In this document: positions 3,001 through 44,394 of the stretch, one piece after another
Layout: every line of letters begins with the position of its first letter
Position numbering within the stretch: position 1 is the first letter of the stretch
DNA from: Planctomycetota bacterium
GTDB taxonomy: Bacteria > Planctomycetota > PLA2 > JAEUHO01
Direction of reading: 5' to 3'
DNA length: 64,000 nt
Assembly (NCBI GenBank): GCA_965223505.1
Contig: CBDCWP010000005.1
Coordinates: 1 to 64,000 of the forward strand
Position numbers and translations under genes: made by a program
Notes under the pieces: model-generated
What the model saw: the letters and a program-made list of their open reading frames with translations, nothing else
Told to the model about the DNA's origin: nothing
Databases searched by the model: none

Positions 3001-5941
3001 CGCGGATGAGGTCGACGGCGTCGTAGAAGTAGTCGGTCGCCTGCGGCGTCGGACCGGCGGGATCGACGAGCGGGCGGATCTGCCGGACGAGGCGGTCCAG
3101 ACCGTCGTACACGAAGCAGTCCTGCGCCAGATCGTCGGTCGTGATGACGGTCTGCCGGCTGAGCGCGTCGTATTCGTAGCGGGTGCTCTTCTTGCTGTCG
3201 CCCGGCGTGAGCGCGCCGTCCTGCACGGTCGCGCCGGATGTGAGGATGATGCCGGCCGGAACGAACAGGTCGCGATCCACCCCGATCAGCCGTCCGAGCT
3301 CGTCGTACGAGAGATCCGCGCCCGAAAGCGCGACGTTGCCGCCGCCCGAGCCGTCGGCCGGCCCCGTGCAGTCGTATCGAATCAGCCGATCGACAGCGTC
3401 GTACGCGTACGTGCACACGTTCCCGCCGCGGTCGTTTTCCTGGATCATGCGATCGAAACCGTCGTACGCGTAGAAGTGCGTGTTGCCGGCGTTCTGCGTC
3501 CGAATGCCGGTGAGGTTGTCGTTGGCGTCGTAGAAGTAGTTGATGGCCGACGAATCGGCGCCCAAGCCACCGCGCTGACGAATGAACACACGGTCGTGCG
3601 CGTCGTAGGCTTGCAGGACGCGGGCTTCCGGCTGTGCGCCGGTCGTCGACATGGGACTGCGCACGTCGACGATGTTCTCGTTGGCGTCGTAGTGGTAATC
3701 GGTCATCAGCCGCTGTGCTTGCGCGGACGCCGGAATCGCGGCGTCGCGCGTCGCGTCGATGTCGACGCGAATGACCCGGTCGAGGATGTCGAACGTCATG
3801 AGGTGTTGGTAGACGGACGGACTTCCGGGAACGACCTGATGGGTCGACGGGTCCGTCGTCCAGTGTTCGGCGTCCGTGCGAACGACGTTTCCGTTGGCGT
3901 CGTACGTGTAGTGCGTGAGGAAGCCTCGCGCCTGGCCCGGATCGACCTTCGGAGCCTCGCGCTCGACCAGCTCGCCCAGCTCGTTGTGGAGGTAGAGGTA
4001 CTCGTTTCCGTTCGGGTCGGTCAAGGCGACCAGGTTGCCGAGATCGTCGTATCGATAGGACGTCTGGGCGTCGACGGGTGTGGCCGCGTCCTGACGCCCC
4101 GGACCGGCTACGTCCACGCGCATGCTGCTGCGATAGCCGCCCGCCGCGGGGTCGTTGCCGGCGATGAGGTTCGCGCCGTCGCCGTCGGGATCGTTCTCGG
4201 GAAAGTACGCATAGACGTCGCGGTTGCCGCGCGCGTCGATCAGCTCGACGATGCGGCTGAAGTCGTCGTACGCATAACGGGTGACGTGCTCCTGTTGCGT
4301 GTCCCCCTCGTTCACGGCTTGCTTCGAGCCGGCTGCGAGCGCGACCGTGGGGTCCTCGCGCCGAACGAGATTGCCGGCGCGCTGGTCCGTGCGGCCGTCG
4401 CCGTTGAGATCCCCGAGGTTCAGCTCGGAGGGCGGGATCACGAGACCGAATTCGGGCACGCAGGCCGGCGGCGTGTTGCCTTCCTGGTAGTCGTAGAAGT
4501 AATGCGTCGTATATCGCGCGGCCGACTGGGCGCCGCCGTTCTGCGGCACGTACGCGGGGTCGTTGCCCCGCGGATCCGTGATCGTGCGCACCATGTTGTA
4601 GACCGGGTCGTACGTGTAGGTGGTCATCAGCTGCGGATGCGCGCTGGGACGAACGCCGTCCGGTGTCAGCGTGATGCTCAGCACGTTGCGTTGCGCCGAG
4701 CGGTCGGGGTTGACCGTGTCGTAGACGAAGTCGACACGGTTGCCGAGCGGCAACGTCCTGCGCGTCACGAGGCCGTCGGGGTTCACCATGAAGTCCGTGA
4801 CACCGGGTGTGCCGCCGGGGTCGGACACGTACCGCAGGCAGTGGCCCACCGCGTCATGGAAGTACTGCGCGACGTTGTTGCGGCGGTCGCGCACGGTGGT
4901 GAGCGACGCCGTGCCGACCGGCCCGCCGACCGGGGCGAAGTCGTAGGTGAAGCTGAACATCCCTCCCGCGGGGCGTCCCGACGCGTTGGCGCCGCCGCGG
5001 ACCTGCGTCACCACGCGATCGAAGGCGACGCCGGGCCCGCCGTAGGTGTTGACGACGGACGGCGTGTTGGAGGCGTCCGCGACCTCGTTCGGCCGAACGA
5101 TCGTCAGCAGATTGTGATTGAGCTCGGGCGACGCCGATCCACTGACGTAGGTGTACCGCTCCGTGCGGCCCGCGGGGAAGTCGTTGCCGTTCGGCGTGCC
5201 GTTCACGGTCGGTGAGCGTACGGCGACGAGGTTGTCGGCGGCATCGTACGTGTACATCACCTGGTTTCCGGTGAAGTCGGTGATCGTCTCGACGAGGTTG
5301 CCCGTGTACGTGAGCACGACCTCCCGGTTGTACTCGTCGAAGATCGATGTCAGCCGAATGCCCGTGTACTGGTACCGCACCTGGTTGCCGGCGGGGTCCG
5401 TCGTGTTCTGGAGCACGCCGTTCAGGTCGAAGCGGCACTTGAGGCCCTGCGGATAGCGCAGCGTGAAACCCGTCGCGTCCTTGATCAGGCGCGCGAAGAC
5501 GCCGGGTGGCGAGTCGTACGTCCCGCCTCCGGTGTCGGCGAACTCGCGCGCGGTGCCGTTGCCCGGATGCCAGATCACGTCTCCGCCCGACTGCTCGTCG
5601 AGGCGCATGAAGATGTTGGAGTCCCAGCCGAACCCGAACGGTCCCGCTTCGTGAACGAGACTGCCGTAGAACCGCTTCACGACGATCCCGAGGCGCCGAG
5701 CGCGAATCGCCATGTCGACACGCGAGAGACGGAACTCACCGCTGTGAAGCCAGACGCCTGCCGCGCTGTCCTGCGGTGAGAGCCCGGCGCTCGCGTTGGT
5801 CGCCGGCGGCTGCAGGTGCGGTCCGAGCACGACGATGATGCCGCCACCTCCGCCACCACCGCAGCCGGTGCAAAGCAGCACCGCCAACATCCAGAAGAAC
5901 CAACGGACGCGATGCTTCGATCCAAACCCCGTCATCATCAT
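74..5941 (-). CDS. RHS/YD-repeat lipoprotein with C-terminal secretin (GspD/PilQ-like) domain
   Basis: GAGGAG RBS before ATG at 5941; lipobox-like LLCTGC; RHS N-terminal motif (GPFGFGWDS); many YxYD repeats; C-terminal ~300 aa with secretin motifs QVTVETRFVTV, APRITVFNTQRA, GITLDVRPTVS, GVPMLSRIPYISRLF, LMVTPRII. Confidence 0.85.
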   Translation of the reverse strand: MMMTGFGSKHRVRWFFWMLAVLLCTGCGGGGGGGIIVVLGPHLQPPATNASAGLSPQDSAAGVWLHSGEFRLSRVDMAIRARRLGIVVKRFYGSLVHEAGPFGFGWDSNIFMRLDEQSGGDVIWHPGNGTAREFADTGGGTYDSPPGVFARLIKDATGFTLRYPQGLKCRFDLNGVLQNTTDPAGNQVRYQYTGIRLTSIFDEYNREVVLTYTGNLVETITDFTGNQVMYTYDAADNLVAVRSPTVNGTPNGNDFPAGRTERYTYVSGSASPELNHNLLTIVRPNEVADASNTPSVVNTYGGPGVAFDRVVTQVRGGANASGRPAGGMFSFTYDFAPVGGPVGTASLTTVRDRRNNVAQYFHDAVGHCLRYVSDPGGTPGVTDFMVNPDGLVTRRTLPLGNRVDFVYDTVNPDRSAQRNVLSITLTPDGVRPSAHPQLMTTYTYDPVYNMVRTITDPRGNDPAYVPQNGGAQSAARYTTHYFYDYQEGNTPPACVPEFGLVIPPSELNLGDLNGDGRTDQRAGNLVRREDPTVALAAGSKQAVNEGDTQQEHVTRYAYDDFSRIVELIDARGNRDVYAYFPENDPDGDGANLIAGNDPAAGGYRSSMRVDVAGPGRQDAATPVDAQTSYRYDDLGNLVALTDPNGNEYLYLHNELGELVEREAPKVDPGQARGFLTHYTYDANGNVVRTDAEHWTTDPSTHQVVPGSPSVYQHLMTFDILDRVIRVDIDATRDAAIPASAQAQRLMTDYHYDANENIVDVRSPMSTTGAQPEARVLQAYDAHDRVFIRQRGGLGADSSAINYFYDANDNLTGIRTQNAGNTHFYAYDGFDRMIQENDRGGNVCTYAYDAVDRLIRYDCTGPADGSGGGNVALSGADLSYDELGRLIGVDRDLFVPAGIILTSGATVQDGALTPGDSKKSTRYEYDALSRQTVITTDDLAQDCFVYDGLDRLVRQIRPLVDPAGPTPQATDYFYDAVDLIRVEETHVSPDSLVAPATQTSHVVFDALHRLTRVTDAKGQTTYFDFDSANRVVSRWDARGASIADPLGLFTAGNINDRGNGNHYAYDGAGRLWLRTHELRVNGQGDQPLDMTNPDNADGLIRIVRQLDANGRLVSLLDDVGNQTTYEYDALDRRTVMLNPDGSQQTYAYDFNDNMVQRTDENGTVMTGQYDALDRLTRLTGVTDPLLTVAGGAHPLYVGSTELTWQYDGLSRVTRATDNNEPGTAADDSVLVFKWDSCGRKVEEVQDGLAVGVSYDADDPVELRYPGASRVVSYEYDPINQPTVVSNPTTIRNDRYYQGRNSFPFMETTAASGSTVLETSTTTDELGLPFAQTVQNGAAAVISQITGVGRTRTNLLSQLTTSRTVPGGNNVTRATSTTYDSRGRPFTITRDETATILGLGILQTDARLTGTGAVTRIFKTDGVINQTTNITRNSVQGDTSKEYDGGTAGIGTESEDDFFVYQCDFLGRIAVARFVSAPDFIFEKNTYDARDRRTRKVVTNVPAFNTDLVFIYQGERVIEIRPGGSTRTLAQFLFGGIGDVFAMDRDTNADGDPDQSFFYTSDYQNGPSALVDDNGIPVEWYDYDGFSVPTIRDAMTMLDAAFSARGNPLLKKGAFYDAGTQHYRSASGSVSPRTGDRQGRLSGGAGSGFDANAVAAATTPQVQDKIADLLEDLRRVLDLQVTVETRFVTVSDNFLRDIGVDFRGLAGAVAECPPVNQPSDTFGSGVDDGSDDGLKTRAEGLGDAAIGGSQTTRDGLAFQPTFLDDTELEVILRAVQRSERLSMVQAPRITVFNTQRANVGAINQTSYIRDFDVEIAQTSFVADPIVGIIQDGITLDVRPTVSSDRRYVRLTLQPTVAELVRPIQTFSTAFVDDSAPIVIQLPELRLQRVRTQVTLPQTGTILLGGIKTTKKPANERGVPMLSRIPYISRLFKNVGIGRGTQSLTLMVTPRIIIQEEE

Positions 5942-6087
5942 CAACTCCTCACTCCCACGCCCGCGAAGCCCGCTTCCAGGGGCTGGTTCAGCGTAGTCCG
6001 GGCGTGCTTTCCTTCGCAACGCCCCAGTGCGAACCGTCGGATCGTTCGGACGGTTCGGTGTCCCCCGAACGGCGCTACGCTTGGGGT

Positions 6088-7725
6088 GTGCGATGGATCG
6101 TCGTCATCTCGGCGTTGGGCCTGCTGTTCGCACTCGCCCACGTGCTATTGGACGACGGCCGTGCTCCGGACAACGGACGCGACGACGTCATGGCGGCCGA
6201 CACGCGCGACCCCGGGATGTTGTCGGCGGACGCGACGGAACCGGGGAACGTTCGTGCGCGGACCGACGGCGAGAAGGCGAAGCTCGTCGGCCGTCCGGAC
6301 GCGCATCCGGCCGGCGGCTCGACGCCCGCGAACATGCGCAAGATCGAGCTGCACGACATTCACGGCTGCGTCGTCGACGTTCGTGGCAGGGCGATACAGG
6401 GCGCGCTCGTCTACACCACCGGCAAGTCGGCGTCGCGCTGGGGCTCGTTCGACGTCGGCGGCAAGGCGACGACGGACGCGAAGGGCCGGTGGTCGATCCG
6501 CGTGCTGTCGACGAAGGGCCGTTGGATCGGCGCGCGGGCAAAGGGCTTCATGAACGCCTTCGTCGACGGCGACGAGGCCGACGTGTCGCGGTCGATTCGC
6601 ATCGAGATGCCGTACGCCGAACGACTACGCGTGCTCGTTCTCGACGCGAACAACGAACCCGTGCCCGAGGCAGGTGTGCGGCTCAAGCCCATTCCGTCGC
6701 AAGGCATGCAGAGCGAATACCCCAGTCCGAGCCACCGCGGACCCGAGCGGTACGAGGCGACCGACGGCGAGGGCTTCGCCACGTTCGAGCTGAACACCGA
6801 CGGCCCCGTGCTGATCGCGCCCGACATGGACGAGGTGTTCACGGATCCGCCGGAGCAGTGGCTGCCGCGCGCGGCCGGGACCGTCACGTTTCGGATCGGT
6901 TCCGGCGCGGTGCTGAAGCTGCGCGTCGAGAACGAGTCGGGCGACGTCCTCGACGACACCGCGTGGGTCGAGGTGCGCGAAGCCGGCACGGACCGCACAC
7001 TGGACCAGGCCCGCTACAAGCTCATCGAAGGACGGCTGGAGCGGCCGTTCTCCTTCGCGCCGGGCTGGTACGACGTCCGTGTCCACATGAAGGACCGCGA
7101 TCCGGCTTGGCTTCCCAACGTGCGGCTCGGAATGAAAGACGAGACGCCGGAACACGTCGTTTCGATGCGGCCGCTGCCGGAGATGGGCCGGATCGAGGTG
7201 CAGTTCAGCTTGCCGCCGGACACGAAGACGATCTCGCGCCCCGGAATCTTCGTGCGCCGCCAAGAGCCCGGCCGCGACCGGCGCTGGACGCCCGTCGTGG
7301 CAGGCAAGTGGTATGCAGAGAGCGGCGCCGGTCACGTCTTCAGCGCAGAGCTCCATCCCGGGACCTACGAGCTGGCCGCTTCGGCGATCGCCAACGGCCT
7401 TTGCGGCGTGCGCCGGGTCGCGGTCCGGTCCGGCAAGACGACGAAAACCGCACTCACGCTTGCGGCGGGGCTGCGCTTCAAGCTGTTCGACGTGGTGCCG
7501 CGCGATCTCGAGATTCGCCGCATCGACGTCGACGTCGGCCGCCTGGGGATCTTCGCGCCGCTGGGCGCGGCGGGTGCGTCCACGACGCGACACAGCTCGA
7601 GCCTCGAGCAGTTCGTCACGGATTGGCGGTACGCGGATCCGGTGCTCGGTCCCTATCCCGCGACCTCGGCGACGGTCCACGTGACGGCGTGGAACGGCAC
7701 CAAGCACGAATTTCACGTCCGCTGA
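6088..7725 (+). CDS. Membrane-anchored carboxypeptidase-regulatory-like (beta-sandwich repeat) protein
   Basis: N-terminal TM (VRWIVVISALGLLFALA); repeats of GxVVDxxGxxIxGAxV and TDxxGxF; start approximate. Confidence 0.65.
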   Translation: MRWIVVISALGLLFALAHVLLDDGRAPDNGRDDVMAADTRDPGMLSADATEPGNVRARTDGEKAKLVGRPDAHPAGGSTPANMRKIELHDIHGCVVDVRGRAIQGALVYTTGKSASRWGSFDVGGKATTDAKGRWSIRVLSTKGRWIGARAKGFMNAFVDGDEADVSRSIRIEMPYAERLRVLVLDANNEPVPEAGVRLKPIPSQGMQSEYPSPSHRGPERYEATDGEGFATFELNTDGPVLIAPDMDEVFTDPPEQWLPRAAGTVTFRIGSGAVLKLRVENESGDVLDDTAWVEVREAGTDRTLDQARYKLIEGRLERPFSFAPGWYDVRVHMKDRDPAWLPNVRLGMKDETPEHVVSMRPLPEMGRIEVQFSLPPDTKTISRPGIFVRRQEPGRDRRWTPVVAGKWYAESGAGHVFSAELHPGTYELAASAIANGLCGVRRVAVRSGKTTKTALTLAAGLRFKLFDVVPRDLEIRRIDVDVGRLGIFAPLGAAGASTTRHSSSLEQFVTDWRYADPVLGPYPATSATVHVTAWNGTKHEFHVR

Positions 7726-7731
7726 GCGGCG

Positions 7732-8160
7732 CTACTCCGGCTGCTCGGCGGCGAACTCCGTGATGCTGCGCAGCTCGGGGACCTCGTCGGGGCCGACCCG
7801 AATGTCGCCGACGAGCGTGGCGCCCTTGTCGACCACGAGCCACGAGGCGCGCACGTTGCCCTCGACGGAGGCCTTCTTGCCGATGTGAACGCCCTGCAAC
7901 GAGAACACGTTGCCGGTCACGCGGCCTTCGATCTTGAGATCGTCGGCGCGGACGTTCGCGAAGACGAGGCCCTTCCGGGTGATGTGCACGTGGTTGGCGA
8001 CCTTGAAGTTGCGAATCGCCATGTAGTTCGTGACGCGCGACGACTCCGTGATCACGCGCTGATGGCAGTGGCGGCAGCTGACCGACTTGGCATTCACGTT
8101 GATCTGCATCGGCTGATCGCACGACGTGCACAGCGTCAGCCGATCTTTGGAAGCCGCCAT
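7732..8160 (-). CDS. Bactofilin with N-terminal Zn ribbon
   Basis: CTSC...CRHC followed by bactofilin repeats (IEGRVTGNV, VEGNVRA, GATLVGDI). Confidence 0.8.
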   Translation of the reverse strand: MAASKDRLTLCTSCDQPMQINVNAKSVSCRHCHQRVITESSRVTNYMAIRNFKVANHVHITRKGLVFANVRADDLKIEGRVTGNVFSLQGVHIGKKASVEGNVRASWLVVDKGATLVGDIRVGPDEVPELRSITEFAAEQPE

Positions 8161-8266
8161 AGGAGGGGTCCCCGCTCCGAACCTGAATGAGAACGGCCAT
8201 CCGCGCGCCCGTCCCGTGACAGGGGGCGGCGACGCGCGGATGGCTCAGCGGAAGGACGGGCGGTCG

Positions 8267-8677
8267 TTACTTGCGACCGGCAGCCGCGTCGGCGATGGCG
8301 CGCATGTTGTCCGTCGTGGCGGGCTTGCTCGCCTTCACGGTGCCGCCGACCTCGCAGCGACCCACGAACACCGCGCCTTCCTGGACGAGCAGCTTCGCCG
8401 CGCGCACGTCGCCGTGCAGCTTGCCCGACGCGTTGAGCTCGACGCGGTTCTCGGCCATGAGGTTGCCCTCGACGTGGCCTTCGAGTGTGATCGACCCTGC
8501 GTTGATCTCGGCCTTCATCTTGCCGGTCTTGCTGACCAGGACCTTGCCCGGCGTCTTGATGCCCCCCTCGAACTGGCCGTCGATCTTCACGCCGCCGTCG
8601 AACGAAAGCTCGCCTTTGAACTTCGCATCGGCGCCGATGACGGTCGCATAGTCAGGGTTGGTCGGTGTGGATGCCAT
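8267..8677 (-). CDS. Bactofilin (polymer-forming cytoskeletal protein)
   Basis: TVIGADAKFKGEL...IDGQFEG...GKLHGDVRAAKLLVQEGAVFVGRC. Confidence 0.9.
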   Translation of the reverse strand: MASTPTNPDYATVIGADAKFKGELSFDGGVKIDGQFEGGIKTPGKVLVSKTGKMKAEINAGSITLEGHVEGNLMAENRVELNASGKLHGDVRAAKLLVQEGAVFVGRCEVGGTVKASKPATTDNMRAIADAAAGRK

Positions 8678-8825
8678 CGGTGTCTCCTGAGGTGTCTGGG
8701 CTCACTTGCGTGCGCAGACGGGTTTCCCGGATCGGCGGGTCCCCCGGACCCGCGCGTGGCGGACTGTAGCAATGGGGACCCCCGCCTCCCGGCGGCCCTG
8801 ACGCGAAGGGCGACGCTGCGGGACG

Positions 8826-8930
8826 GGATGCGGAACACGGGACGCGGTAGGCGGGAAGCGGCCCATCCAGCGCGGCTTGCCGGGCGCCGAGCAGCCGTCT
8901 CCCGTTTCCCGCCTCCCGCCTCCCGCCTGG
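8826..8930. repeat. Two inverted arrays of degenerate 7-nt tandem repeats
   Basis: GGATGCG/GAACACG/GGACGCG/GTAGGCG/GGAAGCG (8826-8860) and CGTCTCC/CGTTTCC/CGCCTCC/CGCCTCC/CGCCTGG (8896-8930). Confidence 0.6.
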
Positions 8931-8941
8931 CGGGCATCTCC

Positions 8942-10741
8942 CTACCCGATCACGGTCGTCCCCTCTTCCCGTTCCCCGGTCTGCACGCGCCACAGCGCGG
9001 CATAGACGCCGTCCTTCGCCACCAGCTCGTCGTGATGCCCCTGCTCCGACAACCGCCCGCGATCGAGGACGTAGATGCGGTCCGCGTTCCGCACCGTCGA
9101 GAGCCGGTGCGCGATCACGATCGTCGTCCGCCCCACCGCGATGCGCTCCAGCGAACGCTGGATCGCCGCCTCCGTCTCGTTGTCCACCGACGACGTCGCC
9201 TCGTCGAGCACCAGGATCGGCGGGTCCTTCAAGATCGCGCGGGCGATCGAAAGTCGCTGGCGCTGGCCGCCCGACAGCTTCTGTCCCCGCTCGCCCACGA
9301 TCGTGTCGTAGCCCTCGGGGAGCTCCTGGATGAACCCGTGCGCCTCGGCCGTCTTCGCCGCCTCCACGATCTCGTCCATCGTCGCATCGAGCCGCCCGTA
9401 CGCGATGTTCTCGCGCACGCTGCCGTGGAACAGGAACACATCCTGGCTCACGAGCCCGATGGCGTCGCGCAGGCTCCGCAGCTTCAGCTCGTGCAAGTCG
9501 ATCCCGTCCAAGAGCAGTCGGCCGCCCGTCACGTCGTAGAAGCGCAGCAGGAGCTTCACGAGTGTGGTCTTGCCGGACCCGGTCGGACCGACCACCGCCG
9601 TCGTCTCGCCGGCCTTCATGCGCATCGTCAGGTCGCGCACGATCGGGTAGCCCTCACGGTAGTGGAACTCCGTGTTCTCGAAGACGATCTCGCCCTCGAC
9701 GTCCTCCGTCTTCAGCGTGCGCGGGCCGTCGAGCACGCGCGCCTCGGTGTCGAGCAGATCGAAGACCCGGTTGGACGACGCCATCCCCCGCTGGTAGAGG
9801 TCGAACGTCTCGCCGAGCCGCGTCAACGGCCACAACAGCCGCTGCGTCAAGAACGCCATCAGCGCGTAGACCGAGGCGTCGAGCTTGTCGTCGAGCACAC
9901 GCACGCCGCCGTAGATCAGCGTCGCCGTGAAACCGACGACGATCACCATCCGGATCAATGGAGAGAACGCGGCACTGAGCCGGATCGCCGAACGGTTCTT
10001 CAGCCGAAACGTGTTGCTCTCCTCACGCACGCGCTCGACTTCGTGCAGCTCGTTCGTGAAGCTCTTGATTGTCGCCACGCCGCCGAGGTTGTTCGCAAGC
10101 TGGCCGCTGAGGATGCCGACGTGCTCGCGCACGGCGGCGTAGCGCGGAGCGATCCTGCGCTGAAACGTGAACGAACCCCAGAGGATGAACGGAATCGGAA
10201 GCATCGCCAGCCAAGCGACCTCGGGCGCGAACCAGAAGAACGCGGAGCTGATGACGACGACGGTCGTCGCGACGTGCAGCAGGTCCGTCGCGCCGTGGTC
10301 GAGGAAGCGCTCGAGCTGGTTGACGTCGTCGTTGAGGATCGCCATGAGGCCGCCCGTGCTCTGGTCCTCGAAGTAGGCCATCTCCAGTCCCTGGACGTGC
10401 TCGTACGCATCGAGCCTCAGCTCGTGCTCGACGGTCTGCGCGAGGTTGCGCCAGAGCACGCCGTACGCGAACTGGAAGAGCGACTCGAGTCCCCAGATCA
10501 GCAGCGTGAGGATCGCGAGGATCCAGAGCTGGCCCTTGGGGTCGGCCACGCCGAACCCCGAGAGGAACGACGCCTCCTTCTCGATCACCACGTCGATGCC
10601 CATGGCGATCAGGAACGGGGGTGCGAGATCGAAGATCTTGTTGAGCACCGTGCACGCCGACGCCGCCCAGACGCGACCGCGGTGCGGACGCATGTAGCGC
10701 AGCAGGCGGCGCAGCGGGTGGACGAGCTTCGCATCGGGCAT
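8942..10741 (-). CDS. ABC exporter, fused permease/ATPase (MsbA-like)
   Basis: TM domain, Walker A GPTGSGKT, signature LSGGQRQR, Walker [10 protein letters not shown]. Confidence 0.92.
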
Positions 10742-22012: not shown

Positions 22013-22978
22013 CTACGCGCGTTCCAGGTGCTCGTTGATCAACCGCTCGAGCGTCTTGGGATCCAGCTTGCTGCCGCCGATGCGGGGGGAGCCGCCGATC
22101 GTGTTGCTGCCGCCCCAGCCGTCGGCCCCGTGTGAAATGCCCTCTACCTCGTTGAGGCGCCGGAAGAGCTCGTCGATGGGGAATCGGACGAAGGGCGACA
22201 TCCGGCCGAGCGTATACGTCCACGAGCCGTCGTCGTTGTCGCGCACGGAGACGAATGCGCGCACACCCGAGGAGAAGAGCTCCGTGCGCGCATGCGGCCC
22301 GTGCTCGACGATCATCTTCCAGCCGGGTCCGCCGCCGATCTCTTCGAGGTCGGTGTCCAAATCGACTTCCTGGCCGTCGCCGTCCGCGAGCATCGTGATG
22401 CGATCGCAGACGGTGTCGATCAAGGCGCGCATGTCGTCGGCCGTCATGTCCGGCACCTTGCCGGCGGTGCGCGCGTCGAAGTAGGGTCCGAACACCCATG
22501 CCATCTGCCGCATGCCGGGCCGGTTCGGCGCGACGGGATACGCGCCCCCGGTGCAGTCGAGAATGTCCTCGGCGAGCAAGAGCCGCGCGAGCGGCTGCAC
22601 GATGCGCGCATTGGCGATCCGCCCGGGGTTGCGAAGCAACCAGACGGCGAGGCAGGTGTCCTGATCGGGATCGTTCACGAAGACGTGGGCGTGCGGATCG
22701 CCGTCCTTCTGGAAGACTTCGAAGAACCCGACGGAGATCGCCATGAACACCTGCATGCACGTGCTGCGTGTGGCGAGCCGGTCGACGTCGGCGTGGTGGT
22801 CGAAGTTGGCGTGAGGTCCTTTGGGGTCGAACGCGGGCGCACCGATCACGTAGCCGTCCAGCGCGATCGAGTACGGCGGGTTCTCGGCGCGGAACGCGTC
22901 CCAGGTCTTGCTGACGCGGGGCTCGACGTGCAGTTCCATCGCCGTCACGGTATCAAGTTCGCGGATCGGGCGCGTCAT
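22013..22978 (-). CDS. Hypothetical protein, DHH-like motifs in permuted order
   Basis: IALDG, NFDHH, RSTC, then NDPDQD; C-terminal GWGGSNTIGGSP. Confidence 0.55.
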   Translation of the reverse strand: MTRPIRELDTVTAMELHVEPRVSKTWDAFRAENPPYSIALDGYVIGAPAFDPKGPHANFDHHADVDRLATRSTCMQVFMAISVGFFEVFQKDGDPHAHVFVNDPDQDTCLAVWLLRNPGRIANARIVQPLARLLLAEDILDCTGGAYPVAPNRPGMRQMAWVFGPYFDARTAGKVPDMTADDMRALIDTVCDRITMLADGDGQEVDLDTDLEEIGGGPGWKMIVEHGPHARTELFSSGVRAFVSVRDNDDGSWTYTLGRMSPFVRFPIDELFRRLNEVEGISHGADGWGGSNTIGGSPRIGGSKLDPKTLERLINEHLERA

Positions 22979-23648
22979 GTCCGTTGTGCTCGAGCAGATA
23001 GGCGACGGCTTCGTCGCAATCGTCCGTCTCGCGCGCCATCACCTCGTTGTGCGCGATCGTGCCGGCCTGCAGCATCTTGGTGCGGATGAAGTCGAGCAGC
23101 GGCGCCCAGTAGTCCATCCCCATCACGACGATCGGAACGGGGGTCATCTTGCCGGTCTGCTGCAGCGTGGCGGTCTCGAAGATCTCGTCGAGCGTCCCGT
23201 AGCCGCCGGGCATGACGACGACGCCCGACGAGTACTTCAGGAGCATCACCTTGCGCACGAAGAAGTAATGGAAGCTCACGAGCCGTTCGACGTACGGATT
23301 CGGCTCCTGCTCCACCGGCAGGACGATGTTGCAGCCGACCGAGATGCCGCCGGCCTCGCGCGCGCCGCGGTTGGCGGCCTCCATGATGCCGGGTCCCCCG
23401 CCGGTGACCACCGCGTAGCCGGCGCGCGCGAGCTTGGCGCCGAGCTCGCGGGCGAGGCGGTACCAGCGATGGTCTTCGTCGAAGCGCGCCGAGCCGAAGA
23501 CGGTGATCGCGGGCCCCAGGTCGTACAGCGCGCGAAAGCCGCGGACCATCTCGTCGAAGACGTGGTTCGCGCGCTCGAGGTCGGTCTGGAGCTCGTCGGG
23601 TCCCCGCAGGAGCGACTCGATCGCGGATTCCTTGCGCTTCGCGTTCAC
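22953..23648 (-). CDS. LOG-family (TIGR00730) nucleotide phosphoribohydrolase
   Basis: VFGSAR, TGGGPGIMEAAN, FFVRK, PGGYGTLDE. Confidence 0.92.
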   Translation of the reverse strand: MNAKRKESAIESLLRGPDELQTDLERANHVFDEMVRGFRALYDLGPAITVFGSARFDEDHRWYRLARELGAKLARAGYAVVTGGGPGIMEAANRGAREAGGISVGCNIVLPVEQEPNPYVERLVSFHYFFVRKVMLLKYSSGVVVMPGGYGTLDEIFETATLQQTGKMTPVPIVVMGMDYWAPLLDFIRTKMLQAGTIAHNEVMARETDDCDEAVAYLLEHNGHDAPDPRT

Positions 23649-23710: not shown

Positions 23711-25054
23711 ATGCGCAACTGGGTTTGGCTCGCGGTCTGTTGTTCGATGATCGGCTCGGCGGAGGCGGAGGAACCCGTTGCCGGGAAACCGGTGCCGGAG
23801 CTGCGGCTGCCGACGATCGATCGCGACAAGACCATCGGCCTGCACGGGCTGCGCGGCAAGAAGGTGTTGCTGATCGAGTTCGCGTCGTGGTGAGCGGGCT
23901 GCCGCAAGCACGTGCCGGTCTGGCACAAAGCGACCAAGAAGTGGCGCGACAGCGGCGCGCTCGCGCTCGTCGGCATTACGCAGGAGCAGCATCCCGACCG
24001 CTGCCGCCTGTTCGCGCAGTGGCACGGCATCGACTGGCCGATCCTGTGGGACCCGTTCAACATGACGGGCTCGAAGGTCGTTCCGCGTTTCTTCCTGATC
24101 GACGAGCACGGGATCGTGCGCTCGAAGCGCGCGAACCCGGAGTCGATCGAGGAGATGTTCCTCTCGAAGGCCTTCCCGAAGCCCGCGTCGTTCCCGCAGC
24201 ACCCGAAGGGGACCGGCAGGGAGCTGATCGAGTGCCTCACGACGCCGAAGGACGACCCAGAACACGCGATCTACCGCGCGCTCTCGGATCTGTTGTGGCC
24301 GCCGAAGCCGGGTGATTGGTCGGCGATCGACGTGCTGAGCAACGCGGCGGCGGACACGGAGAGCGCCTTTGGGCGGGCCACGATCTTCAGACTGGGTGCG
24401 GCGCACTGCCTGCGGCGCGACTCGCCGCAGCGCGCAGCCGGCGACTTCGAGCTCGCGCTGCGAAGCTGGGGGCTGGCGCTGAAGGCGGACCCGCAGCAGT
24501 ACATCTGGCGCCGGCGCATCCAGCAGTACGGGCCGCGCATGGACAAGCCGTATCCCTTCTATGACTGGGTTTCGAAGGCGCAGGCCGACATCCGCGCGCG
24601 CGGCGAGACGCCGATCGAGCTGCCGGTCGCCTTGACGGCGGCGGAGCTGGCCAAGCGCAGCGGCGATCCGGAGCCGGGCGTCGGAGACGAGGAACCGGAC
24701 CCGAAACGCCAAATCGAGAGCATGGACGGCGTGGTTCGCATGGAGAGCGCGGTGGCGTTCGACACGAGCCGGCGCAAGGCGAGCGCGGCGCGGGTCCATC
24801 TGACGCTGTGGCCGGGAAAGCAAACGGTGAAGTGGGATCCGGCGGCCGGCGTGCCCCGGGTATGGCTCGCGGGCAAGCTGGTGAAGCCCCGGTTCGCGGT
24901 GCGGCCGGGCGCCGGCATCGCGTTCGAGCTGGACGCGACGTTCGAGGCGGGCGTGCCGCTGCGGGGGTACGTGCTGTACTACGCGTGTCTGGACGACACG
25001 GGGCAGTGCCGGTACCTGCGGCACGATTTCGAAGTGAAGGTGGAACGGCCGTAG
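23711..25054 (+). CDS. Secreted TlpA/peroxiredoxin-like selenoprotein (UxxC; Sec at TGA 23891-23893)
   Basis: ORFs 23711-23893 and 23912-25054 are in one frame; readthrough gives KKVLLIEFASW-U-AGC-RKHVP at the WCxxC site; downstream hairpin. Confidence 0.85.
23912..23926 (+). promoter_or_regulatory. Putative bacterial SECIS hairpin
   Basis: GTGCC-GGTCT-GGCAC; loop starts 24 nt after the UGA. Confidence 0.7.
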
Positions 25055-38517: not shown

Positions 38518-41500
38518 CTACTTGGCGGTCACGTCGATGACGGTCTCGCCGGTTCCGTCGAGCTCGACCTCTTCGTCGTAGATCGGCTCCTGGTTGTTCA
38601 CGAACCCTTGCCCGAACACGCGCACCGTCACCTTGAACCGGCCGGCGCCGAGGCCCTTGACGACGAGGTCCTTGCCGTCCGCCATCTGGAGCCACATCGA
38701 TCGCTGGTACTTGGGCTCACCCTGGTGATGCACCTGCACCCACGTCTGCGGCTTGGTGTCGCTCTGCGTTGCGACACGCACGCGGATCGTCGCGCCCACG
38801 GGCTGCTGCAGCATGCCGAGGTCGGTGACGCCTTCGCCGACGGTGACGTTCTTCTTGATGATCGGCGCCTTCTGATACGCCTCGATCCACAGCGTGTACT
38901 TGCCCGGCGGGAGCCCGCCGAGCCGCCACGTCGTCCCCTTGAGCGTCGGATTGATGCTCTTGACGGTCTTCTCGAGCGTCCCGCCCTCGAAGACGACGAC
39001 GCGCACTTGCCCGCCGCCCCCCGGCATCGGCATCGAGGGCACCGGGATCGCGCCCGACGTGCTGCTCGGATCCTTCGGCTCCGGCGTGTCGGGGTGTTTG
39101 AAGTGGATCTCGCTGCCCGCGACCATCGTGATGGTGATCGGACCGCCGCCGGCGACGACCGCGATGTTCGTGTTGCCGCCGGCGACGCCGAGCACCGGAT
39201 GGCGAACCATCAACATCACCTCTTGGCCGGCGACGCCGCGGATCTTGAAGTTGCCCTTCTGATCCGGACGGCGTCCCGCCCACTGATTCGCCGGATCGTC
39301 CTGGCCTTGCACCAGGATGCGCGTCTGCTGCGCCGACTCGCCCTCGGGCACCTCCACCTTGCCCTCGATCCAAACGGAGGTCGTCAGATCGAGCATGATC
39401 TCCGACGGCGGGCCCCCGAGCGTCACCTCGACGGAGTTGCTCTCGATGCGCGACGTGGCGTCGCGAGCGCGGTACGTCCCCGCCTTCAGGCCTTCGAACT
39501 TCTGTGAGCCGTCGTCGGCTCGCCCGCCCGCCCGATTGCCGCTCATCGGGTTGAACCCGCTGTTCCCCCCTGAGTGGTCCCACTTCTGGGTCTCGTCGTT
39601 CCACTTCTGCAGCTGCAGGTTGTACGAGCCGTCGGAAGGCTTCTCGACGTACACGATGACCGTGCCTGCTGCGGGCATCTCGACCTTGACGGTCTGCTCG
39701 GCCTGGCCCTTGCCGGGCACGATCTCGGCTTTGCCCTGCAGATAGCCCTGCGCGTTCACGATGACCGGGACCGGCTTCTCGGACTCGATCTGCTGCTCGC
39801 TCCAGCGATGTGCCACGCGCAGCTCGCCGGCGTCGGGGTCCTCGGTGATCTCGTTGACGTTCTTCCACGCGCCGCCGATGGTCACGTTGAACTGGGGCGG
39901 AAGACGGTCTTCGCCGTCGATGTTGATGCGGATGACGATCGGCGCCTCCGGCTCCATGTCGATCTCGTAGAGGTCCTTGCCCTCTTCGATCTTGAAGTTG
40001 CCGATCATGGCGCCGCCCCACGCCTGGTGCGGCGGCAGCATGTAGACCTGAACCTGGATCCCGTCCTGGACATCGACCTCGACCTTGCCTTCCGGGTCGG
40101 TGGTCATCGGCTCCATCGTTTGCATCGCCATCGAACCCTGAAGGCGAATGCGCGCGTCGGCGACCGGCCCGGCGCCCTTCTCCTTGATGGCGATCGTGAC
40201 CTTGCGACTGGCGGCGAACGAGACCGGGTTGCCCTTCTCGGCGCCCGCCTGACACCAGAAGGCCGCCTCGGCGTTCTCGGCGACGACGCGCCCGTTCATC
40301 CAGCTGTCCGGCAGCCCCTCGATGACGAGCTCCCCGTCCTTCATGTACGCCTTCATCTCCTTGCTGGCGAAGTTACGCATCCAGAACTGGAGCTCCACGC
40401 GCAGCTCGGTTCCGTCCGGCGGCGGATCGACCTTGGCGTTGTCGGCGATCGGGAACGTGACGGTGCGGAACTTACCGAGCTTGATCGTCCCCTCCGTGTC
40501 GTCGGCCTTGACGGAGTTGGACGGGGTTCCGCCCCATGGGTTCGGCTTGGGATAGCCCTGAGCCTCCGCAACGAACCGGTAGGTCTTCTTGGGCGTCAGG
40601 CCGGTGACGCGGGTCTTGCCTTCCTCGTTCGTGGGTTCGACCTCGAGCGGCGGCAGCATGCCGGACGCGTTGATGTTTCCGAAGTTGCCCTGCACGGAGA
40701 CCTTGGCGCCGGGAATGGGCTCCTCGGTCTCCTTGTCGACGACCGTGAGCTCGATGATGCGCTCCTCCGGCAGCTCGACCTTGAATACGTCTTTGGACGT
40801 GCGCGGGAGCGTCACCATCTTCTGACCGCGGCCGTAGCCTTTCGCCGCGCACAGGGCCGTCACGTTGCCCTCGGGAAGCAACGACGCTTCGAACACGCCG
40901 GCTTCGTTGGTCTTGCCTTCGGCGACGGGCGTCATCTGTCCCCAGACCGTCGACGTCACGACGACGTCCGCGTTCGGAACAGGCGCCTCCTGATGCACGA
41001 CGTGAACCGCGAGCTTGTGCGCGGTCCCCAGGATGATCGGGTTGACGACGACGACCTCCCCCGATTGCTGGGAAAGCCACATGCCGCTCACGCCGGTCAG
41101 CGGACCGGGTGCGTTGGCGCGCACGAGCCCCATCGCCCAGCCCGTCTCGGGCGCGTCACCCGCGTAGAACTGGTACTCACCGTTCGCGTCCGTCTTCGTC
41201 GCGATCTTGTCGCGATCCTTGAAGCGCGCCACCACCTCGGCATCCGCGACGGGTCTGCGGCGGTCGTCGAGGACGCGCCCCTTGACGAGAATCCCGCCCA
41301 GCTCGTCGGGTCCGACGAGCCCCTCGGGGAGCTCGGCGGCCTTCGCGGCGGCGGCTTCTTCGGCGGCGCGGCGGCGGGCGGCTTCCTCGTCGCCCTTGAG
41401 CAGCGCGCGCGACGCCTCGTCGTCGTAGTCGTCTTCGTAGCCGGCGCCGTCGTACCCGTCGTCGGTTCCTGTGAGCATCTCGCCGAAGAGCAGCCACATC

Positions 41501-41547
41501 AGCCCCAGCACTACGACGGCAACCGCGCCGACTACCAGTACGCGCAT
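38518..41547 (-). CDS. Large membrane-anchored carboxypeptidase-regulatory-like repeat protein
   Basis: N-terminal TM; repeated GRVLD..PVADAEV and TDANGEY; GLPPGKY. Confidence 0.75.
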   Translation of the reverse strand: MRVLVVGAVAVVVLGLMWLLFGEMLTGTDDGYDGAGYEDDYDDEASRALLKGDEEAARRRAAEEAAAAKAAELPEGLVGPDELGGILVKGRVLDDRRRPVADAEVVARFKDRDKIATKTDANGEYQFYAGDAPETGWAMGLVRANAPGPLTGVSGMWLSQQSGEVVVVNPIILGTAHKLAVHVVHQEAPVPNADVVVTSTVWGQMTPVAEGKTNEAGVFEASLLPEGNVTALCAAKGYGRGQKMVTLPRTSKDVFKVELPEERIIELTVVDKETEEPIPGAKVSVQGNFGNINASGMLPPLEVEPTNEEGKTRVTGLTPKKTYRFVAEAQGYPKPNPWGGTPSNSVKADDTEGTIKLGKFRTVTFPIADNAKVDPPPDGTELRVELQFWMRNFASKEMKAYMKDGELVIEGLPDSWMNGRVVAENAEAAFWCQAGAEKGNPVSFAASRKVTIAIKEKGAGPVADARIRLQGSMAMQTMEPMTTDPEGKVEVDVQDGIQVQVYMLPPHQAWGGAMIGNFKIEEGKDLYEIDMEPEAPIVIRINIDGEDRLPPQFNVTIGGAWKNVNEITEDPDAGELRVAHRWSEQQIESEKPVPVIVNAQGYLQGKAEIVPGKGQAEQTVKVEMPAAGTVIVYVEKPSDGSYNLQLQKWNDETQKWDHSGGNSGFNPMSGNRAGGRADDGSQKFEGLKAGTYRARDATSRIESNSVEVTLGGPPSEIMLDLTTSVWIEGKVEVPEGESAQQTRILVQGQDDPANQWAGRRPDQKGNFKIRGVAGQEVMLMVRHPVLGVAGGNTNIAVVAGGGPITITMVAGSEIHFKHPDTPEPKDPSSTSGAIPVPSMPMPGGGGQVRVVVFEGGTLEKTVKSINPTLKGTTWRLGGLPPGKYTLWIEAYQKAPIIKKNVTVGEGVTDLGMLQQPVGATIRVRVATQSDTKPQTWVQVHHQGEPKYQRSMWLQMADGKDLVVKGLGAGRFKVTVRVFGQGFVNNQEPIYDEEVELDGTGETVIDVTAK

Positions 41548-41731
41548 CTCGTGGCCCTCCCAAGCACACCGGACATCCGCGCGCCCATCGTAGGCCGAAC
41601 CGCGGGGCTGTGGTCACGCCCCGGGGTGTTGTTTGGACGCCTCGCAGGTGCGGCTCCAGGCTCAATTTGGTACCACCTGGGATCGAGGCCGCGCGTTCCG
41701 GATCGAGCGGCAAACACGACGGAGGTGCCCG

Positions 41732-43051
41732 ATGGCGTTCAAGCTTCGCTTCACATGGCTCGTGTTGCTGGCGGCACTTTGGATGGCGGCGCCGAGCCTC
41801 GCCGAGGAGGAGGGGACCGAGCCCGTTGCGGCCGATCCGAAGGCCGCGCCGGAGGCGGAGTCGAAGGAGCAGATCGAGGCCCGGTCCGCCTTCACCTGGC
41901 TCAAGGCCGCGGAAGAGTTCCGAACGAAGATCGCGCAGAGCGGCCGCGTCCTGATGGAGGCCGCGCGCGAAGGCAAGGGCTTCGACCCGCAGAAGCGTCA
42001 GGACTGGATCGACGCTTCGAGCAAGCTGCGTCAGGTCACCGGGCCGGTCGTGAAGAAGGCGCAGGAGGCATTCCGGGCCGCGTTCGCGAAGACCGCCTGG
42101 GACGCCTGGGACGCGGAGAAGGACGCCGAGATCCTGGAGCGCGGGCTGGACGCCACCGCGCGCCACGAGCTGGAGCACGACCCGGCCAAGGCGGTCGCGG
42201 CTTTGGAGCACTTGCTCGAGCACTGCCCTGACGCGCGCGCGGCGTCCTACGCCAAGTCGACCTGGCTGCCGATCGCGCTCTCTTCGACCGGCGACTTCGA
42301 GCACGCCCGCAAGCGGATGCAGGAGCTGCACGACGAGGCGGACGAGAAGGACCAGCCGGGCATGCTGATGAACATCGGCGACGCGTACGCGATGGAGGGC
42401 AAGTACCAGGAAGCGCTCGACACGTACGCGAAGGCGAAGGCGGCCATTCCCGCGGAGATCACGGACCGCCGCGACCCGCGGGGACGCGTGGCGCGCTACC
42501 TCGACCTACGCACCGGTCTGCTGGGCAAGCCGGCGCCGGCGCTGGGCGACGGCACGTGGCTGGGCGCGGAGCGGAAGACGTTGGCTTCGCTGAAGGGTCA
42601 GGTCGTCCTGCTCGACTTCTGGGCGACGTGGTGCGGGCCGTGCCTGCGCGGCATGCCCGGGCTGCAGAAGATGCACGAGCACCTGGGCGCTACGGGCCTG
42701 AACGTGATCGGTGTGACACGCGAGTACAAGAAGCGCGGCGTGCTGCCGGAGGTCGAAGCGAAGGACGGCAAGCCGGCCTTGCCGCGCGAGCTCTACAAGG
42801 GCGAGACGATGGAGGCGTACATCGAACACCTGAGCGCGTTCCGCACGCGCCAGGAGATCACGTATCCGTTCGCCGTGGTCGCGGGCGACGTGATCAGCAA
42901 GCAGTACCTCGTGACGGGCATTCCCACGATGGTCGTGATCGACCCGGACGGGACGGTCGGGTTCATCGCGGTCGGCGGCGCGCGCGAGAAGATGTTGGAG
43001 GTCGCCATCGCGCGGCGGCTGAACACCCTGAAGAGCGCCGGCTCGGACTAG
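41732..43051 (+). CDS. Secreted TPR + TlpA thiol-disulfide oxidoreductase
   Basis: GGAGG RBS; signal peptide; GQVVLLDFWATWCGPC; GIPTMVVID. Confidence 0.9.
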   Translation: MAFKLRFTWLVLLAALWMAAPSLAEEEGTEPVAADPKAAPEAESKEQIEARSAFTWLKAAEEFRTKIAQSGRVLMEAAREGKGFDPQKRQDWIDASSKLRQVTGPVVKKAQEAFRAAFAKTAWDAWDAEKDAEILERGLDATARHELEHDPAKAVAALEHLLEHCPDARAASYAKSTWLPIALSSTGDFEHARKRMQELHDEADEKDQPGMLMNIGDAYAMEGKYQEALDTYAKAKAAIPAEITDRRDPRGRVARYLDLRTGLLGKPAPALGDGTWLGAERKTLASLKGQVVLLDFWATWCGPCLRGMPGLQKMHEHLGATGLNVIGVTREYKKRGVLPEVEAKDGKPALPRELYKGETMEAYIEHLSAFRTRQEITYPFAVVAGDVISKQYLVTGIPTMVVIDPDGTVGFIAVGGAREKMLEVAIARRLNTLKSAGSD

Positions 43052-43314: not shown

Positions 43315-44394
43315 ATGCGCACTGTCGTCATGTTGTTCGCCGCGTCGTTGCTGGCGCCCACCGTCGCGCTCGCCGAGGAGAGCTGCCTCTCCAAGGACAA
43401 GACCGGGATGGCCTGGGTGCACCCTTTCACGTCCGCGCTGGAGAAGGCCAAGAACGACAATCGCATCCTCCTCATCAAGCCGGTCGCCTTCGGCACCAGC
43501 CAAGACGGCGGGTGGTGACCCGCCGCCGAAGTCCTGAGAGCGGGTCCGTTCTCCGACGAGCGCATCATCCGGCTGGCCAACCGGCGCTTCGTGCCCTTCT
43601 TCTTCGATCTCTCCAACCGCGGCGCCGCCGGTGACCCGCAAGCGCGCGCGTTCCTCGTCAAGGCCAAGCCCCAGTTCGGCAAGGGCATGGTGCCGACGCC
43701 GCCCGTCTTCTTCATGAACGCGCAAGGCAAAGTGCTGGGCGAGATCAGCAACTACGCCAAGCCGGACGACGTGCTGAAGACGATGCTCCACGTCCTCGCG
43801 ATCAACCCGGCGTACGCGAAGCCGAGCGACGCCGAGAAGGCGATCAAGGATCCGATCGAGCTCGCCAACCTGCGCATCGATCTCCAGGACTACGCCGGTG
43901 CCCAGAGCGCCATCGCACACGAGAAGTCCGAAGACGCGGCGTACCTGCGGGGCCGCATCGCGCGCTTCCAGAAGGACTGGAAGACGATGGAGACCAACCT
44001 CGCCCCGCTGAAGAAGAGCGAGAAGTACGGCGCCGACGTGCGCATGGAAACGGCGTACAAGCTCTGGTTCGCGTCCGACTTCGAGGGCCTGCGCAAGCAC
44101 CTCGAAGGGTTCCCCGAGGACAGCAACCGCTACACGGAGGCGCGCTACTACGAAGGCCTCGCCGCCTTCCACCTGAAGGACAAGGAAGCGGCGATGAAGA
44201 TCTGGTCCTCGACGATCAGGGCGTGCGCGCAGGACCCGTGGATCTACCGCGCGGACTGGGCGTACACCCAGTCCAAGAAGGGCGGAAGCGGCCGCGGCGG
44301 TTTCTCGAGCGCCGGCCCGCGCGACTCGTTGCTCAACCGCATCGGCTACATGGGCAACCCGAACCCGGATCTGAAGGGCCCGAGCTCGTCCTAG
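43315..44394 (+). CDS. Secreted thioredoxin-fold + TPR selenoprotein (Sec at TGA 43516-43518)
   Basis: GGAGG RBS, signal peptide; readthrough gives ALEKAKNDNRILLIK...GGW-U-PAAEVLRAGPFSDERIIRLANRRFVPFFFD, in frame with ORF 43591-44394. Confidence 0.8.
43531..43557 (+). promoter_or_regulatory. Putative bacterial SECIS hairpin
   Basis: GAGAGCG-GGTC-CGTTCTC (43536-43553), extended by GTC/GAC; loop starts 25 nt after the UGA. Confidence 0.7.

Follow-up and report, generated by a model that had tools for sequence, protein, structure and literature searches.

What does a UGA codon specify when it falls where a thioredoxin-fold protein is expected to carry the first cysteine of its active site, in a frame that otherwise stays open for 447 codons? 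The question is raised by positions 23711-25054 of a 64,000-nucleotide stretch of DNA, here called the window, from a Planctomycetota bacterium (GTDB lineage Bacteria; Planctomycetota; PLA2; JAEUHO01; assembly GCA_965223505.1, contig CBDCWP010000005.1, positions 1 to 64,000 of the forward strand). A first-pass annotation, made from the sequence, took the gene for an exported TlpA-like redoxin in which an in-frame TGA encodes selenocysteine (Sec, U) and which standard annotation would split in two. The comparisons assembled here indicate that it is very probably a genuine selenoprotein gene, served by a selenocysteine insertion sequence (SECIS) element lying just 3' of the UGA; the weight of the case lies in the conservation of the TGA among relatives and in the covariation of the hairpin that follows it. 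What the protein does with selenocysteine, and whether a second pair of cysteines takes part, can be addressed in more tentative terms.

A conserved UGA and the hairpin behind it

The features on which the argument depends are as follows.

23711-25054, plus strand: complete candidate selenoprotein gene, 447 codons and a TAG stop, with the TGA at 23891-23893 read as Sec
23780-24145, plus strand: thioredoxin-fold domain of the TlpA/ResA/CcmG type, residues 24-145, from Pfam, Foldseek and phmmer
23891-23893, plus strand: proposed Sec codon UGA, residue 61, TGA in 80 of 80 related loci and aligned with the first Cys of CxxC
23900-23902, plus strand: TGC codon of the resolving Cys64, with UxxC in 80 of 80 loci and Cys64 invariant in alignment A3
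23912-23926, plus strand: upper stem-loop of the proposed SECIS, stem GUGCC 23912-23916 with GGCAC 23922-23926, loop GGUCU 23917-23921

From the ATG at 23711 to the TAG at 25052-25054 the sequence translates in one frame into 447 residues when TGA is read as U. The TGA at codon 61 is the sole in-frame stop, the rest of the frame being free of stops and frameshifts, and the surrounding peptide reads LLIEFASW-U-AGCRKHVPVWH. Under translation table 11 the same DNA yields two open reading frames (ORFs), 23711-23893 (60 aa) and 23912-25054 (380 aa). The window has a G+C content of 67.8%, and in DNA so rich in G+C long spurious frames are common and the thermodynamic folding of one sequence says little. 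A more selective measure is a coding-type GC profile across 50 stop-free codons on either side of a TGA, which is found at two TGAs in the window, codon 61 being one of them.

The protein into which this codon is set is readily recognized. Residues 24-145 match Pfam PF00578 AhpC-TSA at 41.8 bits (cut-off 26), the best Pfam match of the protein, and PF08534 Redoxin at 38.4 bits (cut-off 26.6). Alignment by phmmer to PDB chains lays FASW-U-AGCRK on ASWCGVCRK (2ls5), TWCKPCEK (4nmu, ResA) and ASWCGPCKK (2yp6), which puts U61 at the first, nucleophilic Cys of the CxxC motif and C64 at the second. Foldseek against the PDB matched this first domain only (2ls5, 4nmu, 3gl3, ResA 1st9 and CcmG 3k8n; target-normalized template modeling [TM] scores of 0.62-0.80), its top matches being structures of the ResA, CcmG, DsbE and TlpA types. 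In the AlphaFold2 (AF2) model, strand 51-57 leads into helix 62-74, with U-x-x-C at the N-terminus of helix 1. A Cys version of the fold, already pointed out by the first-pass annotation at 41732, is present in the same window: paralogue P0123 (ORF 41633-43051, gene 41732-43051 from the ATG at 41732) carries a WATWCGPC motif, which BLASTP aligns on FASW-U-AGC (34% identity over 68 aa, pairwise E 3e-6), within a different architecture, which is helical in its N-terminal part and carries the redoxin domain C-terminally. The coordinates, domain matches and structural alignments thus agree with the original description of a TlpA-like UxxC redoxin whose codon 61 sits at the first Cys of the WCxxC motif.

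Conservation provides the first line of evidence on the codon itself. A tblastn search of species-representative genomes returned at least 283 stretches encoding a relative, of which the best-scoring 80 were taken as the genomic sample. These loci share 37-52% protein identity with the query; nearly all are metagenome-assembled genomes (MAGs) of Planctomycetota, 75 of the 80 belonging to Planctomycetota lineages to judge by their record titles. The codon aligned with U61 is TGA in 80/80 loci, within the context FASW*[AVSER][GS]CR, and TGC or TGT in none; UxxC is likewise kept in every locus. The tblastn matches cross the site, with the protein conserved on both sides of it, and in 78 of the 80 the upstream frame is stop-bounded and contains a start codon at a distance of 48-120 codons from the TGA; in the remaining two the frame runs off the contig. 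Three loci (L020, L038 and L071) are labeled as Pseudohongiellaceae, Actinomycetota and Armatimonadaceae MAGs, for which binning contamination or lateral transfer is possible.

The proteins deposited for these relatives have a very different appearance. A homologue search that scored 8000 candidates gave 1968 proteins at E <= 1e-3, and the best 120 of them are all 361-413 aa long, cover 81-86% of the query, start after the TGA and, where given a name, are called "hypothetical" or "TPR". When 25 homologues were aligned, none reached upstream of residue 62, and 23 began at the M/V of (M/V)P(V/G)W(H/Y); starts just past the TGA are expected where gene callers restart after a stop. The split by standard annotation that the first-pass annotation foresaw is therefore visible in the databases. 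On the selenocysteine reading, public annotation cuts the protein short in the source organism and in hundreds of related bacteria, and recognition of the family would set right the selenoproteome across an entire phylum.

Relatives that dispense with the TGA do exist at greater distance. An exhaustive search of representatives (protein clusters at 50% identity) gave 11,100 matches at E <= 1e-3 and 281 at E <= 1e-30; among the best 150 of that search, 139 are called N-terminally truncated, without the active site and under the names "hypothetical" or "TPR," and 11 span residue 61. These 11 full-length, stop-free relatives (29-41% identity; P0125, P0128, P0131, P0140, P0171, P0180, P0182, P0209, P0227, P0231 and P0250) form a non-TGA sister clade with Ser at position 61 in ten (ASW-S-ExCR) and Cys in one (P0128), and 7 of the 11 keep C64. 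They may be redox-dead or single-Cys derivatives. Cys at the position of U61 is accordingly found in the PDB oxidoreductases, in the paralogue P0123 and in P0128. The expectation of Cys/TGA pairing among homologues was borne out, with TGA in close relatives and Cys in thioredoxin-fold homologues; of the eleven nearest full-length relatives without TGA, ten have Ser.

The second line of evidence concerns the hairpin GTGCC-GGTCT-GGCAC, located by the first-pass annotation at 23912-23926, where it indeed lies. The region from -6 to +62 around the TGA was aligned for the window and the 80 loci (81 sequences) and is gapless; RNAalifold predicts the hairpin from this alignment unaided. Columns 27-33 pair with columns 36-43 in 97.3% of 560 cells, against a shuffle mean of 91.1% and none of 500 shuffles as high, and in a control in which the 3' partners were slid by 1-3 columns pairing fell to 27-37%. 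Compensatory changes on both sides occur in five of the seven hairpin pairs. Pair 33-36, formed by the third positions of the Pro69 and Val70 codons, is GC in 65, CG in 10, AU in 3 and otherwise in 2, both sites being synonymous. Third-position entropy at V68/P69/V70 is 0.19/0.86/0.76 bits, whereas six further conserved four-fold codons of the gene have 1.13-1.87 bits. One locus (L035) has double substitutions at two stem pairs, and there the peptide changes too, from HVPVWH to RTPGWR.

The apex is similarly constrained. Loop positions 1 and 4 (23917 and 23920) covary as a pair, with G23918-U23919 at the apex and U23921 bulged; the apical G is invariant, the U next to it is present in 72 of 81 sequences (G or C otherwise), and the U after the covarying pair is invariant. 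As in other bacterial SECIS elements, the hairpin lies within the coding sequence just 3' of the UGA and has a small loop that opens with GG and then U; the stem is of 5 bp here and of 6 bp in most relatives. In bacterial SECIS elements, SelB contacts the apical G and U. The GGUC apex is identical to that of Escherichia coli K-12 fdhF, as the first-pass annotation had stated and as the fdhF sequence verifies (GCA-GGUC-UGC after the UGA). The two elements differ in spacing, the fdhF apex lying 18 nt after its UGA and the loop here starting 23 nt after it, and in fold: fdhF, as folded here, has an unpaired U on the 5' side, whereas the invariant U here is on the 3' side and loop positions 1 and 4 are paired. 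An fdhF-type SECIS apex would thus be found in a distant phylum.

Published constraints for bacterial SECIS (bSECIS) elements lead to the same place. In the model given in the Fig. 2 legend of PMC13188914, the apical loop has 3-9 nt and the upper stem 4-16 bp, a G stands in the first two loop positions, as a rule with G or U after it, the distance from UGA to loop is 16-37 nt, and the minimum free energy is at or below -7.5 kcal/mol. With a 5-nt loop (GGUCU), a 5-bp stem, a spacing of 23 nt and -8.3 kcal/mol for the hairpin alone, the window's element falls inside every one of these ranges, and 75 of the 81 sequences fold at or below -7.5 kcal/mol. Together with the covariation, this upholds the earlier claim of a SECIS with a loop opening on G, and the retention of the TGA in all 80 loci does the same for selenocysteine at codon 61. 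In the mechanism envisioned, SelB carrying Sec-tRNA(Sec) would bind the hairpin while the ribosome stands at the UGA, and selenocysteine would be inserted there.

Domains and a possible redox relay

With 24 readthrough translations as input, AF2 gave a confident model that is continuous across the TGA (predicted local distance difference test score [pLDDT] 88.1, predicted TM score 0.88). It lays out a disordered or hydrophobic segment at 1-20, the thioredoxin domain at about 25-150, a helical region at about 170-313 and a beta-sandwich at about 340-445. The parts outside the redoxin are listed here.

23711-23767, plus strand: signal-peptide-like N-terminus, MRNWVWLAVCCSMIGSAEA, residues 1-19, predicted from the translation
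24218-24649, plus strand: helical middle domain, residues ~170-313, from AF2 helices; TPR-like in some homologues
24497-24568, plus strand: most conserved peptide block of the family, QYIWRRRIQQYGPRMDKPYPFYDW, residues 263-286, with invariant or near-invariant columns
24728-25045, plus strand: C-terminal immunoglobulin (Ig)-like beta-sandwich, residues ~340-445, from AF2 strands; domain model pLDDT 85.1
24986-25009, plus strand: conserved Cys pair C426-x6-C433 on a beta-hairpin (codons 24986-24988 and 25007-25009)

The N-terminus has a basic residue, a hydrophobic run and then A-E-A, with low pLDDT at residues 1-20, and the homologue N-termini in the 24 readthrough translations are hydrophobic too. 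The protein is probably exported, as was first claimed, the signal-peptide reading of this segment being the whole basis for that part of the description; its TlpA/ResA/CcmG-like domain would then act in the periplasm as a thiol-disulfide (selenylsulfide) oxidoreductase through U61 and C64. The extra helical region announced by the first-pass annotation is borne out by helices at 173-313 of the model. TPR families or names are attached to some homologues, and the window protein has no Pfam match to TPR at E <= 0.1. The conserved block QYIWRRRIQQYGPR.DKPYPFYDW (residues 263-286) sits within this helical domain.

The C-terminal domain gave weak, generic beta-sandwich matches in Foldseek (best DUF4426, E 9.7e-4, query-normalized TM <= 0.55), and Pfam assigned NPCBM_assoc/NEW3 to 15 of 73 such domains. 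It had been described as DsbD-N-like, and of this the Ig-like beta-sandwich with an invariant CX6C stands while homology to DsbD-N was not found: Pfam gave no such match in 73 domains (E <= 1) or in the whole protein, a PDB profile search none at E <= 10, and the Foldseek rows to rank 50 no DsbD. With no match in three kinds of search, the phrase describes an analogy and not a demonstrated relationship. The N-terminal domain of DsbD hands electrons to CcmG in a periplasmic reducing pathway, and here an Ig-like beta-sandwich with a close Cys pair likewise stands beside a CcmG/TlpA-like redoxin; the present case differs in that both parts are fused in one chain and no membrane partner resembling DsbD-beta lies nearby.

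C426 and C433 are invariant in the alignments A1 (26 sequences), A3 (24) and A5 (73), the last of which leaves out the five loci lacking a C-terminal CX5-7C as well as L041 and L064, where the ORF runs off the contig end and CX6C is present. Across the sample, the C-terminal CX5-7C is found in 75 of 80 loci. The other five count on the negative side, and they are of several kinds: L037 is cut by its contig, L048 and L056 look frameshifted, and L040 and L043 are truly different. In L048 and L056 the homologue ORFs end early and the C-terminal peptides look out of frame, which could reflect indel errors or real gene decay.

More speculatively, the C426-x6-C433 hairpin on the Ig-like domain could be a second redox center that would exchange electrons with U61/C64, in the manner of a fused carrier-plus-redoxin pair. 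The two centers are proposed to cooperate because they are retained together in the Sec forms and lost together in the Ser forms: of the 10 full-length non-TGA relatives extending to the C-terminus, none has retained C426 and C433 together. Relatedness alone could yield the same pattern if the loss happened once. We regard this relay step, which is suggested by the co-occurrence of residues, as a tentative possibility that falls well short of a probable one.

Of comparable standing, and thus also possible rather than likely, is a selenoprotein with no relay, in which the Sec domain works by itself, as a peroxiredoxin-like peroxidase or as the reductase of an unrelated periplasmic client, and the Cys pair is a structural, metal or chalcogen site. 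AhpC-TSA as the best Pfam match points in this direction, as do the "Prx-like" UxxC selenoprotein families named in tables of PMC1088965 and PMC2398784. Exported Ig-like domains, moreover, often have structural disulfides, and the copper-binding beta-sandwiches CopC and P19, together with SoxYZ, appear among the weak Foldseek matches of the C-terminal domain. Those metal-protein matches are weak, however (E > 0.01, TM < 0.5), the closest structures to the first domain are TlpA, ResA and CcmG-type reductases and not peroxiredoxins, and the loss of the Cys pair together with Sec in the Ser clade is unexpected for a purely structural disulfide.

A more ambitious form of the relay can be envisioned, in which the protein, from a family widespread in Planctomycetota, would be an obligately selenium-dependent, self-contained periplasmic relay, a Sec-thioredoxin and an Ig-like CX6C carrier fused in one chain and held by the conserved helical domain, performing chemistry beyond the reach of Cys. 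We consider it doubtful. The consideration behind it is that Sec is never replaced by Cys in the 80 loci, and that the family either keeps Sec or, in the Ser clade, loses both centers together, which would point to chemistry that Cys cannot do; if it were true, the substrate of the relay might be a chalcogen, a polysulfide or a metal rather than ordinary disulfides. Whatever the outcome, Sec in 80/80 loci beside a sister clade with neither Sec nor the Cys pair amounts to a natural experiment, one that bears on the reasons for keeping Sec and on whether the two redox centers work as a pair.

Other readings of the UGA

Several observations weigh against selenocysteine insertion at this codon or loosen its support. 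The 80 loci, being the top-scoring of 283, are biased toward the close relatives of the query, and the nearest non-TGA relatives mostly carry Ser, not the Cys that is usual for Sec/Cys pairs. Six of the 81 hairpins are weaker than -7.5 kcal/mol, and a G-A stem mismatch in three loci (L072, L077 and L080) is among these weak ones. Taken from the window alone, the 76 nt that follow the UGA are no more stably folded than their shuffles (z = 0.58); this single-sequence value is uninformative, so that support for the hairpin comes from comparison across loci. Rfam at gathering thresholds gave no match in the window. The recurring neighbor of the homologues is a GNAT acetyltransferase, and that in 6 of 80 loci only; the gene neighborhood is therefore not conserved, and offers no hint of a substrate and no operon partner. 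Finally, no selA, selB, selD or tRNA-Sec is present within the 64-kb window, where there is no tRNA and no SelA, SelB or SelD domain among 36 mapped proteins, and we thus infer, rather than observe, the Sec trait of the source organism.

The machinery was seen in one relative. In a Pirellulales MAG (L047, 4893-10110), the homologue (4893-6377, plus strand) is followed by tRNA-Sec, selA and selB. The tRNA-Sec(UCA) (6458-6555, minus strand), found by ARAGORN and scoring 67.5 bits against Rfam RF01852 (cut-off 47), lies 80 nt past the homologue stop; selA occupies 6963-8096 (minus strand; PF03841, E 2.7e-113), and selB 8128-10110 (minus strand; GTP_EFTU with SelB winged-helix and beta-barrel domains). 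The selA ORF covers model positions 1-270 of 367, and may be truncated or mis-started. Such linkage occurs in 1 of 80 loci, a further point on the negative side: when SelA and SelB of L047 were compared by tblastn with the window and every locus, L047 alone was matched. Complete Sec-insertion gene sets are reported from several Planctomycetes in PMC4807772. On Sec machinery, then, the prediction finds its answer in a relative and none in the window.

It is against this background that decoding of the UGA as a standard amino acid (Trp, Cys or Gly), through reassignment or near-cognate readthrough, must be judged. That no Sec machinery is visible in the window leaves some space for it. We nevertheless consider it very unlikely. 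TGA serves as an ordinary stop in the window, ending 14 of its 35 predicted genes, so there is no genome-wide reassignment; the codon stands at the position of the redox-active Cys; the covarying hairpin has an fdhF-type GGUC apex at the bSECIS distance; and tRNA-Sec, selA and selB adjoin the homologue in L047. If Cys sufficed, moreover, some TGC or TGT would be expected, and there is none in 80 loci.

That the TGA is a true stop, closing a 60-codon ORF and followed by an independent protein of 380 residues whose start is GTG 23912, is highly improbable. Table 11 yields exactly those two ORFs, TGA is a normal stop in the window, and the lengths at which the best 120 homologues are called (~361-413 aa, starting past the TGA) fit the second of them; gene finders, however, truncate any selenoprotein in this way. 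The split would fall inside a thioredoxin fold, at its active site, leaving neither piece a domain, and in 80/80 loci the 60 codons before the TGA show protein-level conservation and share the frame of what follows. The starts chosen by gene callers also lie within the SECIS hairpin, which covaries as RNA.

A pseudogene, or an assembly or sequencing error for TGC or TGT, would usually show itself as a single in-frame stop in one sequence, and the window alone cannot exclude it, but the same TGA in 80/80 independent assemblies from different species at 37-52% identity, in a gene that in the window has no other stops or frameshifts and is strongly conserved on both sides, effectively refutes it.

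Known families, gene surroundings and side observations

With selenocysteine as the preferred reading of codon 61, it can be asked how new the protein is. Sec-containing thioredoxin-fold UxxC proteins have been catalogued since 2005 (PMC1088965, PMC2398784, PMC13188914), and the kind of protein is thus already known. The tables of PMC1088965 include a "Prx-like protein" and a "Thiol-disulfide isomerase-like protein," PMC2398784 has an entry "Prx-like 1, pfam00578, UxxC," and a 2026 review table lists cd02966 TlpA-like entries (PMC13188914). As described in these excerpts, the published families share with the present one the thioredoxin fold, the UxxC motif and AhpC-TSA/TlpA-like models; they differ, in a comparison by description only, in that the same excerpts make no mention of Planctomycetes, of a three-domain form of about 450 residues or of a C-terminal CX6C. 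The available text of BSepDB (PMC13326102) and deep-Sep (PMC12013277) likewise yielded neither Planctomycetes nor this architecture, and their supplementary lists may hold the family. The three-domain Planctomycetota family looks like an undescribed variant of the UxxC Sec redoxins.

Among family models, the nearest is the selenoprotein model NCBIfam NF041054, "ResA-like WAxxUGC motif-containing protein" (WAxxUGC_long), the best NCBIfam match at E 1.6e-16. Model positions 80-342 (of 354) align with residues 24-296, which take in the thioredoxin domain and a large share of the helical region; with 60.5 bits against a cut-off of 300, the protein falls outside this family. The family name carries U-G-C where the protein here has U-A-G-C (UxxC), and the model stops short of anything corresponding to the C-terminal beta-sandwich. 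No mention of "WAxxUGC" was found in the literature searched, and no model in the June 2026 copy of NCBIfam captures the family.

The relation to classical TlpA, ResA and CcmG (DsbE) proteins is one of shared core and divergent surroundings. In common are the fold, the active site at the start of helix 1, the W-[C/U]-x-x-C motif and an N-terminal export signal, here predicted; an invariant V124-P125 would, to judge from its conservation, occupy the site of the cis-proline loop. The protein here differs in having Sec for the nucleophilic Cys and in being about three times longer, with its added helical and Ig-like CX6C domains. Scores against the NCBIfam equivalogs are low (ResA NF002854, 36.6 bits against 170; DsbE TIGR00385, 24 against 123; TlpA NF047696, 19.9 against 230), and neither the window nor the locus flanks provide a cytochrome-maturation or Sco/Cox gene context.

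The gene stands alone. Its upstream neighbor is divergent:

22953-23648, minus strand: LOG-family gene

Downstream there is about 1.2 kb without a confident gene and then a convergent ETF-QO gene. Neither a sigma-70-like promoter nor an intrinsic terminator was found.

In the search of the window for further selenoproteins, a plain list of TGA-readthrough ORFs was swamped by spurious frames, and a stricter GC1/2/3 filter left the two TGAs mentioned above. A Pfam scan took in five candidate readthrough ORFs together with four plain table-11 ORFs from annotation gaps, and no further selenoprotein candidate emerged; the only match among the nine was an M18 aminopeptidase domain.

The second of the two TGAs belongs to a candidate selenoprotein gene at 43315-44394 (plus strand), where the TGA at 43516-43518 falls in the peptide ...DGGW-U-PAAE..., which has no Cys in its vicinity. 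Besides codon 61, this is the one TGA of the window flanked on either side by coding-type composition, and the predicted protein has a hydrophobic, signal-peptide-like N-terminus. Its best 120 homologues all cover at most 82% of it, mostly 79%, as fits calls that start just past the TGA, and where named they are Planctomycetota or TPR-like. Pfam gave no match, and the TsoB selenoprotein model matched over its C-terminal part with 16 bits only. Two genes 20 kb apart with a shared signature hint at further hidden selenoproteins in this organism.

Some other features of the window and the loci deserve mention. Two very large proteins of repeated CarboxypepD_reg/Ig-like domains (38518-41547 and 44880-48617, both minus strand) lie on either side of the segment that holds the Cys-type TlpA-like gene and the second candidate selenoprotein gene. 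At 48690-50303 (minus strand), an N-terminal Rieske [2Fe-2S] domain is fused to a glutamate-synthase-type flavin mononucleotide domain. An ORF of 1981 residues at 74-6019 (minus strand) unites DUF6531 and many RHS repeats with a C-terminal secretin, an unusual combination that may reflect a true fusion or a pair of genes sharing one open frame. In L007, ARAGORN reports a permuted "tmRNA*" at 6122-6657, overlapping the 3' end of the homologue ORF, which is probably a false positive in GC-rich coding sequence.

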